Positions 31,278-47,248 of a DNA stretch of 64,000 bases are shown here, piece by piece. The DNA comes from Candidatus Altimarinota bacterium (GTDB lineage: Bacteria > Patescibacteriota > Gracilibacteria > JBDHUY01): contig JBDHUY010000012.1 of NCBI GenBank assembly GCA_039809385.1, forward strand, positions 1 to 64,000, written 5' to 3'. The notes below the pieces were generated by a model that searched no databases, was not told the origin of the DNA, and saw nothing but the letters and a program-made list of their open reading frames with translations. The number at the start of each line of letters is the position of its first letter. The first letter of the stretch is position 1. The position numbers were made by a program, and so were the translations under genes.

Positions 31278-31823
31278 ATGAAAAACGCGCTTGTGTTTCA
31301 CGGTACCGGCGACACGCCCGATCGATACTGGTTTCCGTTTGTACGGGATTTTTTGGAGCGGCGCGGCTACGAAGTCTGGCTCCCGGCCCTTCCCAATGCC
31401 GCTACTCCCAATGTGCGCGACTGGCTGTCTTTCGTGCTGGAGCGGGGGCACGTTACCTCCGATACGCTCCTGATCGGCCATTCAGCCGGCTCGCAGCTCA
31501 TTCTAAATCTCTTAGAGACTCTTTCGGAACCGGTTCGTCAAGCCGTACTGGTGTCGGGATATGCCCGGGGCTTGCGGAAAAACGCCCAAACCGAGGAATA
31601 TGCTCCGCTGAATTGGGAAACGATCAAAACCAGAGCCGATCAATTTGTCTTTATCAATTCGGATAACGATCCGTGGGGCTGCGACGACCGGCAGGGGCGT
31701 CTCATGCTCGAACGTCTGGGTGGCATCCTGGTCATTCCGCACGGCGAGGGGCATATGGGCTCGACCAGCTTCTCTCAGCCTTATACCGAATTTCCCTTGC
31801 TGACCCGGTTGCTGGATGTTTAA
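31278..31823 (+). CDS. YdeN/RBBP9 family alpha/beta hydrolase
   Basis: VFHG, YWFP, GHSAG nucleophile elbow, SDNDP, GH. Confidence 0.9.
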   Translation: MKNALVFHGTGDTPDRYWFPFVRDFLERRGYEVWLPALPNAATPNVRDWLSFVLERGHVTSDTLLIGHSAGSQLILNLLETLSEPVRQAVLVSGYARGLRKNAQTEEYAPLNWETIKTRADQFVFINSDNDPWGCDDRQGRLMLERLGGILVIPHGEGHMGSTSFSQPYTEFPLLTRLLDV

Positions 31824-31835
31824 GCCCGGGATACG

Positions 31836-32155
31836 AAAAAAGACACTGTAACTTGGTAGTCAGGGAGTGTCTTGGTCCGATGAACCTTATAAGCGGCGGT
31901 GTAGTATGGAGTGCCGCTCAAGGCGAATCACCGGAAAATGAAGAGTCACCTTTCTTCGGGTGTCCCCCGACGTTTGCAGTCGGGGTGTCTGCTGCCGTGC
32001 TTTGGTTTGATTATCCCACAAACCGGAAGGGTTGCTTTTGTAGCGACCGGATCCGTCCTGATTCCGAGCTTGACACTGGGTCAATGGAACAGTAAAATAC
32101 GATCAAGCAAATGGTGTTTAAGAAAGTCTTGCTGAAGTTTTCAGGAGACTTTTTT
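31836..32155 (-). ncRNA. Candidate ~320-nt structured ncRNA, family unknown
   Basis: Eight consecutive hairpins; minus-strand TACAAT at 32156-32161; terminal hairpin plus U6 at 31836-31873; strand not certain. Confidence 0.45.
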
Positions 32156-32634
32156 ATTGTAAGTCCTTGCTGGTGAAGCAAAAACTGTATCGCACAGCAG
32201 AGAAAGAGGAAATCGCGAGGGAAATTTTCCCGGCACGAACTGCTCTTTCTCTACTGGTCCAGATTGTCAACGATCGGCAAGGTAAGAAAGCGGCCGCTGT
32301 ATCTCACCTGATTTTTTTTGAGATCTGTGTGTGTTATCAGAAAATTTTGTTTTCAAAACATAGTACTCCCTTCAAAAAAAATGGCAAATATTACCTCTTG
32401 AGCACAGACTATAAAAATGGTGTAATGATAATAGTGTGTACTAAAAGAGCTGTATAAAAGCCAAAAGAACAATTTCTTCATGTTCCCCAACGTCTTTTTA
32501 TTACAGCATTTGAAGAATGGATAGTCAGAAGCACGCATGCCAAGAAAGCTCGCAAGCGTTGCTTAGGGGAAATAGATCGTGCAAAGCAATTTCGCCTTTT
32601 ACGATGGACAATACTCTGAGTCAAAACATGCGAA

Positions 32635-33483
32635 TTACACGACTTGAAAGGGGATTGTCTGGACGACTTTCATCTGTTTCATGCGGGCAAATCGTTCATC
32701 CAGATTATTTTCGAGTATCCACTCGTGATGGGTTTCGGCGATCATGTTTTTATCGTCGACCGAGATCCCCTGCCACTCGAAATCGACGGATACGTTGATA
32801 GCCTGGTCGGGATTTTCGGATGCCTGAAAGTTTTTCGGGGTATGTCCGCTCATCTTTACCCGCTCAGAGATCGAAGCGATCCACTGCTCGAATTTTTCCC
32901 ACGAATCGGTGAGCCTGGTCGTGCTCAAATGCAGTTGGAACGAATCGGCGAGCAGTTCGCGGAAGCGCTCGGCTTTACCTCCCGCGGTTTCGATGCAGTA
33001 GAGCCAGTAGTGCATGAAGGACAACGCGCGGTTAGCCGGGTAGGCGTCGGTAAATAGGGGCGGATCAACCGGACCGGTGGGGATGAGTTTGAGCGAGGTG
33101 AAGACGGGCAGGTCGTTGGCGCGTTTTTTCAGGATGGTGGAATAGCGCAGCGTGTAGCTGTATTTACTCTGGTCGGGACGGATGTTTTGATACAGAATAT
33201 CGGCTTCGAGCGAGAGTGTTTCGGCATCGAGGGGCTTTACTTCGGTTTTTCCGACATGGTGCGCATTCAACCAGCCGTCAAACATTTTTAAGCGATCGCG
33301 TAGACCTTCTTTGCCCTTCGATATACCCAGCTGCGATTCGATCACAACGTCGTCGGCCAGAATATCGAGCTGGTTTCCAAAGCGCGCGTCGTTGATCGGA
33401 CGCTCGTAGATCTGGTACCAGCGGTGGTACTGGGTCAGAGCGAGGTGGGTGGTGGAGATGAATTGGAATGTATTAGACTGCAT
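32635..33483 (-). CDS. Hypothetical protein with two tandem NTF2/SnoaL-like halves
   Basis: Internal repeat HRWYQIYE...ILADDV / HYWLYCIE...LLADSF. Confidence 0.55.
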   Translation of the reverse strand: MQSNTFQFISTTHLALTQYHRWYQIYERPINDARFGNQLDILADDVVIESQLGISKGKEGLRDRLKMFDGWLNAHHVGKTEVKPLDAETLSLEADILYQNIRPDQSKYSYTLRYSTILKKRANDLPVFTSLKLIPTGPVDPPLFTDAYPANRALSFMHYWLYCIETAGGKAERFRELLADSFQLHLSTTRLTDSWEKFEQWIASISERVKMSGHTPKNFQASENPDQAINVSVDFEWQGISVDDKNMIAETHHEWILENNLDERFARMKQMKVVQTIPFQVV

Positions 33484-33562
33484 GTTTTTTAGCAAAAATT
33501 AGCATACCAATAATACGATAAGATACTCTATATTTCGTCAATAAGATATTTTTGATCAATAT

Positions 33563-34226
33563 TCATGAAAAATGTTTTGCCATAAACTGTCCAATTCCTT
33601 CAATCATCTTTAATACATCTTCTTTTGTATAATCAGCAAATTCTCCATGAGCCGCAGCGTTCCCTATATCCAGCCAAGCTTGGCAAAGTCTCCATTGGGG
33701 TTGGGGGTATATACCTTTTGATTTTAAATCATCATTCATTTTAGATGACTTGTCTTTATCATTAAGACCTTCTCTCTTGGCAATCCTTCTAAGTGAATCT
33801 TCAAGAACCACTCTAGCCAAAACCGCTGCGGGGTCTTTATATCCATTTGAATTTAAGTATTTTGCTTCTTCAAGAATATAATCAAATAACTCTCCGGCCA
33901 GAAGAAATTCGTGTCCAATCAAAAAGCCACTTTCTAGATCGTCTAATGAACCTAATAAAAGACCTCCGATGGCATTTACTTCATGTGAATGATAAGTCGC
34001 GATCTGAGTTAATTTCAATAGCTCATTAAATTGAATACTACTTTCTCCAAAAATTATTTTTATAATATTTTTTACTTTTATTAGCCAGGAGTGAAGTGAT
34101 GTTGTGTCATCAATATAATAATATCGCTCCATTTGCATGAGATCGCTCTAATGCTGCTACTTTTTTACCTTCAGCGATTAAATCTCTTAATCGGTCTGCA
34201 TAGAGTTTATTTTTGGTAAGATTCAT
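33563..34226 (-). pseudogene. DUF4145/HEPN-like protein, frameshifted near the 5' end
   Basis: C-terminal AAVLARVVLE...IGNAAAH; an upstream ATG at 34226 (MNLTKNKLYADRLRDLIAEG...) is out of frame with ORF 33563..34138. Confidence 0.6.
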
Positions 34227-47122: not shown

Positions 47123-47150
47123 TTGACTTTTTCGGGTCAACCAGTAAAAT
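47123..47150 (+). promoter_or_regulatory. Putative tRNA-Glu promoter
   Basis: TTGACT-16-TAAAAT. Confidence 0.55.
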
Positions 47151-47173
47151 ATACCTGCTTTGTAAAAAATTGG

Positions 47174-47248
47174 GGCGCTATCGTCTAACGGTTAGGACAG
47201 CGGATTTTCAATCCGTCAATCGGGGTTCGATTCCCCGTAGCGCTACCA
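47174..47248 (+). tRNA. tRNA-Glu(TTC)
   Basis: Acceptor GGCGCTA/TAGCGCT, anticodon arm GCGGA-TTTTCAA-TCCGT, GGTTCGATTCC, encoded CCA. Confidence 0.96.

Follow-up and report, generated by a model that had tools for sequence, protein, structure and literature searches.

To our knowledge, few bacterial non-coding RNAs (ncRNAs) are known that exceed about 300 nt and have a well-supported fold, and each large structured bacterial ncRNA studied so far has led to unexpected biology. The ornate RNAs OLE, ROOL, GOLLD, raiA and HEARO are several hundred nucleotides long, with many covariation-supported helices, conserved single-stranded joining regions and loops, stems of variable length and possible loop-loop contacts, and they are encoded by stand-alone genes of narrow phylogenetic range. 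6S RNA, sometimes present as two paralogues per genome, is the product of a stand-alone gene for an abundant-type RNA with its own promoter and terminator, and folds into a single rod, about 185 nt long, that opens into a large central bubble. The toxin-antitoxin mRNAs of the hok/sok type and the copy-control pairs of plasmids combine a long, heavily folded RNA with a short complementary RNA that has a near-consensus convergent promoter and its own terminator. Here we describe a locus which shares features with each of these systems. In the first 64,000 nt of contig JBDHUY010000012.1 of a Candidatus Altimarinota bacterium (assembly GCA_039809385.1; 1.87 Mb in 26 contigs, 45.7% G+C), a stretch hereafter called the window, positions 31836 to about 32353 of the minus strand probably form a stand-alone gene for a highly structured ncRNA of about 0.5 kb, whose family is not in Rfam.

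With the ornate RNAs the predicted transcript shares all the properties listed above; on the other hand, their Rfam models do not match it, no phage or prophage link was seen, and it comes from a Peribacteria-like lineage within the Candidate Phyla Radiation (CPR), where one small genome carries it as two diverged paralogues with an embedded antisense promoter-like site. Like 6S RNA, it would be made from a gene with its own promoter and terminator, in a genome where 6S RNA is not detected elsewhere, whereas its roughly 520 nt are predicted to fold into a multi-branched structure instead of a rod. The likeness to the hok/sok-type and copy-control pairs lies in the long folded RNA and in the short convergent one with its promoter and terminator, both RNAs being predictions here; the locus differs in having no conserved open reading frame (ORF), in being chromosomal without a plasmid match, and in that the antisense terminator is missing from one of the three homologues. 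Among the search listings of the literature, no structured RNA described for this lineage was found, nor any paper pairing 'Peregrinibacteria' with 'ncRNA'.

The element lies in the spacer 31824-32634, between a serine-hydrolase gene (31278-31823, plus strand) and an ORF of 286 aa (32635-33495, minus strand) which has no Pfam family above the cut-off. A preliminary description of this spacer had proposed a novel ncRNA built of eight consecutive hairpins between 31836 and 32161, and its portrayal of the region as non-coding and rich in hairpins is borne out. When these 326 nt were folded with RNAfold, the minus strand reached -99.3 kcal/mol (z-score -4.72; none of 100 dinucleotide shuffles as good) and the plus strand -111.7 kcal/mol (z-score -3.05; one of 100 shuffles as good), so that the comparison with shuffled controls suggested there as a check favours the proposal. 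ORFs of 56-140 aa overlap the region, none of them with a Pfam match above the cut-off; no ORF is conserved among the three homologues on either strand, and none has a ribosome-binding site or a conserved hydrophobic peptide. Moreover, indels of 1-3 nt, both between the paralogues and among orthologs, are scattered through the most conserved parts. The indels, together with the lack of a conserved ORF and of a Pfam match, show that the element is non-coding.

The homologue search that had been proposed as a further check revealed a second copy and one homologue in a sister genus, and nothing further among the relatives searched. The second copy, in the same genome (G000:C15:33875-34540), is about 75% identical, and nhmmer found these two copies only. 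Their neighbours are unrelated, a serine hydrolase and the 286-aa protein in the window versus FtsW and an SLH-cupredoxin protein at the paralogue. Homology between the copies spans 31834 to about 32405, that is, about 245 nt past the right edge of the preliminary description, whose hairpin-rich spacer corresponds to the 3′ two-thirds of a folded element of about 520 nt. Covariance models detected the third homologue in the family's one other genome, a metagenome-assembled genome (MAG) of Candidatus Peribacteria from a different genus: model R1, a covariance model of 31986-32125, finds it (E 7e-8), and model R2, of 31834-31992, confirms it (E 6e-16). This assembly is fragmented (160 contigs, 86% complete) and shows no second copy; its contig C111 (L035 1-50) starts inside the RNA gene, leaving the 5′ third of this homologue unassembled. 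Finally, orthologs about 95% identical and with the same left flank occur in four public DNA runs, from sludge, a hot spring, a bioreactor and aquaculture, whose contigs were used for natural variation only; in one of the four, the similarity stops at 32401.

Across the three homologues, from two genera, base pairing is conserved with many compensatory changes. With the three sequences taken together, 23 of the 74 modelled base pairs are changed on both sides with pairing kept, a result matched by none of 500 shuffles. The central domain (alignment A6, model R1) accounts for 34 pairs, 10 of them changed on both sides, and the 3′ domain for 40 pairs, 13 of them so changed, with 97.0% and 97.5% of the cells paired, respectively, figures which are generous, as the alignments behind the pair counts were fitted to the model structure and this inflates pairing. 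In both domains, 0 of 500 column shuffles reach the observed values, and sliding the partners by 1-3 columns leaves 0-4 such pairs. An automatic re-alignment of the 5′ domain, which misplaced its long hairpin, was left out of the counts. In a less circular test, one paralogue was folded alone and the substitutions of the other were scored on its pairs: three of the four runs gave 16-20 double changes with pairing kept, against about 7-8 for random columns of the same letters (P <= 0.0065), and in all four, pairs were broken less often than at random. Natural variation also fits the structure by avoiding paired positions: among the strains about 95% identical, just two of the 12 substitutions in 31834-32125 fall at paired positions, though 51% of positions are paired. 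One of the two turns a U·G into a C-G, and the other breaks a 3-bp helix that lacks covariation support.

The predicted parts of the RNA and the signals around it, from its 5′ to its 3′ side, are as follows.

31836-32353, minus strand: predicted full-length structured ncRNA of about 518 nt (about 606 nt in the paralogue), delimited by homology limits, covariation and strand tests, and at its 5′ end by the promoter-like site only
32382-32387, minus strand: candidate -35 hexamer TTGCCA (TTGAAC in the paralogue, at the same spacing)
32360-32365, minus strand: candidate -10 hexamer TACTAT after a 16-nt spacer (TATCAT in the paralogue), with a predicted start near 32353
32262-32352, minus strand: poorly conserved 5′ leader, with 35-60% identity and large indels between the paralogues, its first 15 nt being conserved (32345-32359 region)
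32289-32298, minus strand: hairpin of a G+C palindrome in the leader, with a different G+C palindrome in the paralogue
32196-32256, minus strand: long hairpin whose base has 14 bp and whose tip varies, with one compensatory change from G-C to A-U
32162-32186, minus strand: hairpin found in each of the three homologues, its UCACC loop invariant, with two compensatory pairs and 16 of 16 cells paired on the minus strand versus 13 on the plus strand
32119-32156, no strand assigned: optional hairpin with an A-run on one side and a T-run on the other, shared by the two copies of this genome and missing from the third homologue
31995-32114, minus strand: central domain, with closing helices 32105-32114/31995-32002, a 21-bp hairpin (32045-32104) and highly conserved joining segments
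32070-32098, plus strand: sigma-70 promoter-like site TTGACA, 17 nt, TAAAAT (11 of 12 consensus positions), inside the 21-bp hairpin and opposing the RNA
31965-31985, minus strand: hairpin conserved by position and not by sequence in the three homologues
31940-31957, minus strand: 5-bp hairpin whose conserved loop contains GGUG and is complementary to the UCACC loop of 32162-32186
31876-31935, minus strand: 20-bp interrupted helix with an invariant 2-nt bulge, 8 of its 20 pairs being changed on both sides
31836-31873, minus strand: two-tier terminal hairpin, its internal loop C-rich and conserved (CUCCCUG), with U6 directly behind it (U6-U7 across the three homologues); a predicted intrinsic terminator

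Several of the eight stems drawn in the preliminary description are supported by the three homologues, and two had been mis-assigned. The leftmost stem (31840-47/31866-73) shows compensatory changes, and the long interrupted one (31876-97/31913-35) is the 20-bp helix with its eight pairs changed on both sides. At 31965-71/31979-85 all three homologues have a hairpin, as proposed, of unrelated sequences; in the orthologs, the co-occurring changes 31972 G>C and 31978 A>G turn a facing G·A into a C-G. The stem 32004-09/32019-24 is plausible, with one compensatory change and one mismatch, whereas 32062-74/32080-89 is real and turns out to be merely the tip of the 21-bp hairpin, and 32123-36/32140-52 is the optional hairpin that the third homologue lacks. 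As for the mis-assigned stems, 31947-50/31959-62 has to give way to the covarying register 31940-44/31953-57, and 32030-36/32042-48 is unsupported on the minus strand, where its outer bases are part of the foot of a longer helix and where it is disrupted by a natural variant at 32043.

Two ortholog variants, 31945 and 31951, fall in the loop of the hairpin 31940-31957 and spare the GGUGA. A contact between this GGUGA (31946-31950) and the UCACC loop (32172-32176) is a hypothesis derived from their complementarity, with no covariation for it. Both complementary loops, the C-rich internal loop of the terminal hairpin and a C-rich joining segment of the central domain are candidate functional sites. 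On the 5′ side, the contig of the third homologue opens with the 3′ end of the stem of hairpin 32196-32256. In the paralogue (contig C15, L002 1880-1940 and 2070-2095), this long hairpin carries a tip insertion of about 50 nt, which forms G+C-rich hairpins of its own, and a further insertion of 23 nt lies in the leader; these insertions resemble the typical expansions of variable stems. The leader is otherwise A/T-rich, and its palindrome is a NotI-like site here and a different 14-nt palindrome at the same place in the paralogue (L002 2018-2031), which a terminator scan scored as terminator-like on the minus strand.

The candidate promoter of the long RNA (32387-32360, minus strand) lies about 15-20 nt inside the limit of conservation, and the orthologs have no substitution in either hexamer. 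This conserved promoter-like site and the homology limit would place the 5′ end near 32353. The preliminary description had seen a complete transcription unit of about 320 nt, from a TACAAT (32161-32156, minus strand) to the U6 (31841-31836), both of which are in the sequence. It is unlikely that this unit is correct for this copy, with 32162-32405 belonging to a separate upstream RNA that ends at the hairpin 32119-32156. The -10-like box is present, and 32159 G>A, in contigs of three of the DNA runs of the strains about 95% identical, brings it to the consensus TATAAT, so a copy-specific internal start at the box is possible; likewise, a U-rich stretch comes after the hairpin 32119-32156 on the minus strand, and an upstream transcript could terminate there. 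However, the TACAAT is not conserved, since a 4-nt deletion removes it from the paralogue and it is absent, together with the adjacent hairpin, from the third homologue; the scan finds no -35 partner for it, and the hairpin is weak on the minus strand (-9.8 kcal/mol), with a poor U-tail. In the sister genus, the hairpin 32162-32186 abuts the central domain directly, which argues for an RNA continuous across the proposed boundary. Homology, covarying helices and the promoter-like site reach about 32405, and a length of about 520 nt is more likely, so that the preliminary description seems to have been right in the kind of element and in its strand, and wrong in its extent.

The minus strand, for which the same description had found the G·U evidence mixed, is favoured here by wobble pairs, z-scores and the terminator. 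The helices which are complete only with G·U pairs on this strand include 31884-89/31919-24, 32162-69/32179-86 and the 21-bp hairpin, 26 G·U cells are kept across the homologues, and RNAalifold gives the minus strand the lower consensus energies. Over the 3′ 250-285 nt, the z-scores of the minus versus the plus strand are -3.98 and -1.27 in this copy, -5.37 and -2.17 in the paralogue, and -3.52 and -1.45 in the third homologue. At the RNA 3′ end, the terminal hairpin reaches -11.9, -17.7 and -21.4 kcal/mol in the three homologues, followed in each by U6-U7 on the minus strand. A stable hairpin with a U-run directly after it on the transcribed strand is what defines an intrinsic terminator; the proposal that the left hairpin and its U-run end a minus-strand unit is therefore sustained by three homologues. 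In this copy the tail is the U6 at 31841-31836, and the homology with the paralogue stops at the end of the U-run.

That the functional RNA is instead encoded on the plus strand, for example entering from the hydrolase gene or starting at 32105 and ending at a T6 terminator (32150-32155), with the minus-strand signals incidental, we regard as quite improbable. The plus-strand promoter-like site is conserved in all three homologues and both copies of this genome have a strong terminator, 14 cells of the hairpin 32030-36/32042-48 pair on the plus strand versus 11 on the minus strand, and the plus-strand fold also beats its shuffles, as seen above. Nevertheless, the covarying 3′ domain has weak z-scores on this strand in all three homologues, the G·U pairs of several helices become A·C, the left hairpin has a U-tail on the minus strand only, and nothing is conserved as a promoter left of 31836, where homology stops; the left gene of the paralogue, in addition, points away, so no plus-strand transcription enters from it.

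The signals on the plus strand could serve a second, short RNA opposing the long one. The promoter-like site matches 11 of 12 consensus positions also in the paralogue, with an 18-nt spacer, and its counterpart in the third homologue is TTGACG, 17 nt, TATAAT. In both copies of this genome, the hairpin 32119-32156 begins about 20 nt downstream of the predicted antisense start; on this strand it reaches -15.6 and -21.6 kcal/mol in the two copies, is followed by T6-T7, and would make a good terminator, as opposed to the weak one on the minus strand. From these features we give roughly even odds to an antisense RNA of about 51 nt (about 32105-32155) which may control the level or processing of the long RNA. 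The genome holds 109 sites of 11/12 quality, so canonical promoters are in use. On the other hand, the two hexamers are paired parts of the RNA hairpin, and their sole -10 change covaries with its RNA partner, so their conservation could come from constraint at the RNA level. Close resemblance to the site was observed in the promoter (47123-47151, plus strand) of the tRNA gene at 47174-47245, which reads TTGACT, 16 nt, TAAAAT, its spacer containing GGGTCAA and its -10 preceded by CAG; a TTGAC...GTCAA spacer also occurs in a third promoter, located before a response-regulator gene on contig C8 (about 19850). The TTGAC/GTCAA palindrome was considered as a shared operator and dropped, as there are just four such sites in the genome, one of them that before the response-regulator gene.

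Watson-Crick covariation is symmetric and alone cannot separate RNA hairpins from DNA hairpins, and the two copies stand in unrelated contexts, both of which would suit a DNA repeat whose palindromes act as DNA, for example a miniature mobile element or a site of regulation or recombination. This reading is very unlikely: the genome has two copies only, the boundaries lack terminal inverted repeats, and no match was found in phage and plasmid collections or in viral contigs. The G·U cells that are kept and the asymmetry of the z-scores between strands also speak against it, as do the homology limits, which fall at promoter-like and terminator-like signals.

A search with the 4227 models of Rfam 15 gave, at gathering score, no match in the window except two tRNAs elsewhere, and a permissive scan of 31600-32700 yielded at best 13-19 bits (E 1.1-9.4), versus gathering scores of 40-80. 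The preliminary description had reported no signature of RNase P, tmRNA, signal recognition particle (SRP) RNA or common riboswitches, in line with this result, and the cmscan it had suggested places no Rfam family in the region, the best E value being 1.1. RNase P RNA and tmRNA were excluded as identities of the element, as the genome's own copies are at C3:145597-145987 (175 bits) and C8:28716-29154 (92 bits). The 6S model (RF00013) matches nothing in the region or the genome, and the predicted fold is not a rod with a large central bubble. The SRP models (RF00169, RF01854) do not match the region or the genome either, a negative which is weaker because RF00169 also fails in all 41 class genomes. 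These genomes, the present one included, comprise several closed ones, 96-100% complete, and the same search was positive in 12 of 14 controls; the SRP RNA of this class may be too divergent for current models. The missing 6S and SRP RNAs, and the duplication of 6S genes in some bacteria, would leave room for a very divergent housekeeping RNA at this locus. This is highly improbable, as the permissive scan of the region recovered neither SRP nor 6S RNA up to E 10, the multi-branched structure of about 520 nt is unlike the 6S rod or the small SRP hairpin, and the element was not found outside one family, whereas class-wide presence would be expected of a housekeeping RNA.

A structured mRNA of a type I toxin-antitoxin-like module, or of another small-protein gene under antisense control, has the architecture in its favour (a long folded RNA with a modest promoter, a short convergent RNA with a strong promoter and its own terminator, and several copies), and is scarcely credible given that no ORF is conserved among the three homologues, that none has a ribosome-binding site or conserved hydrophobic peptide, and that frame-breaking indels occur in the most conserved parts.

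Several observations weigh against a long minus-strand ncRNA as described here. Its strand, ends and expression are all inferred from the sequence, and so is its proposed function. In each of the two paralogues, the candidate promoter has a 16-nt spacer and agrees with the consensus at 9 of 12 positions, whereas a far better promoter-like site (11/12) and a better terminator lie on the opposite strand within the element, and the optional hairpin 32119-32156 could end some minus-strand transcripts early. A simple terminator scan of 31700-32650 flags no site, which we attribute to the two-tier stem of the terminal hairpin exceeding the loop limit of the scan. The comparison comprises three distinct sequences only, two of them paralogues, and the 5′ third relies on the two paralogues, poorly conserved there (35-60%), as the contig of the third homologue starts inside the RNA. 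To these points should be added the generous pair counts, the fourth run of the single-sequence test (plus strand, paralogue as reference), which was not significant (12 versus 8.6, P 0.165), and the model helix 32042-44/32034-36, broken by a natural variant.

As to its distribution, the genomes searched show the element in a single small family of ultra-small, Peribacteria-like bacteria, with no homologue outside it. A BLAST search against 40 relatives and 400 class genomes gave, outside its own genome, only short A/T-rich chance matches, and R1 matched the sister genus alone among 150 relatives. Model R3 gave two weak extra matches in 150 class genomes (E 0.0016 and 0.07), which were rejected because the conserved motifs are absent and no R1 match is adjacent. 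A conserved 26-nt pattern, with up to three mismatches, returned five extra matches in 400 class genomes versus three for its reversed control, and R1 confirmed none of them. Exact-pattern scans of JGI metagenome contigs gave 0 and 2 matches, both of the latter rejected by nhmmer; pattern scans of species-representative genomes gave none and then the sister-genus MAG only, that of viral contigs gave none, and blastn against phage and plasmid collections found no match.

The neighbourhoods bear on how the long RNA may act. Upstream of it are the 286-aa ORF and a gene for a DUF4145 protein (33563-34138, minus strand), neither of which has a counterpart beside the paralogue. Downstream, no gene follows on the same strand within the window, and the next gene converges on it; the paralogue is followed by ftsW, and the third homologue by an ORF without a Pfam match and then by a convergent mgtE. 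A cis-regulatory leader would have a regulated gene just downstream on the same strand, conserved between loci, and this arrangement is not found at the three loci. Because the neighbourhoods are unrelated at all three loci and no same-strand gene follows in the window, action in trans is the most likely mode, and the RNA would then be a stable, folded molecule serving as a protein-binding scaffold or as a regulator. It would probably be transcribed from its own sigma-70-type promoter (32387-32360), and the transcript would fold, in order, into the variable 5′ leader, the hairpins 32196-32256 and 32162-32186, the optional hairpin, the central multi-helix domain with the 21-bp hairpin, three further helices and the two-tier terminal hairpin, which would act as an intrinsic terminator with the U6 at 31841-31836. 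The invariant C-rich single-stranded motifs could pair with purine-rich targets resembling ribosome-binding sites, and the short antisense RNA may set the level or the processing of the long one.

CPR bacteria have tiny genomes with little spare DNA, and yet two diverged copies of a 0.5-kb ncRNA are kept in this one, and at least one in a sister genus, which argues for a function worth its cost. The locus would in addition provide a predicted transcript pair, a long sense RNA and a short antisense RNA, although the narrow distribution seen so far limits the weight of the finding. As a tentative and rather doubtful extension, the RNA could be regarded as the first representative of a novel class of large ornate RNAs particular to a Peribacteria-like CPR lineage, a self-contained machine or scaffold of about 0.5 kb with a conserved UCACC/GGUGA contact between loops about 215 nt apart, and equipped with a built-in antisense RNA from a promoter of the type used for stable RNAs, which would set its abundance or maturation. 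If this were true, the RNA might take over the regulation of RNA polymerase or of the ribosome in bacteria of a class where the usual RNAs, 6S and canonical SRP RNA, are undetectable.

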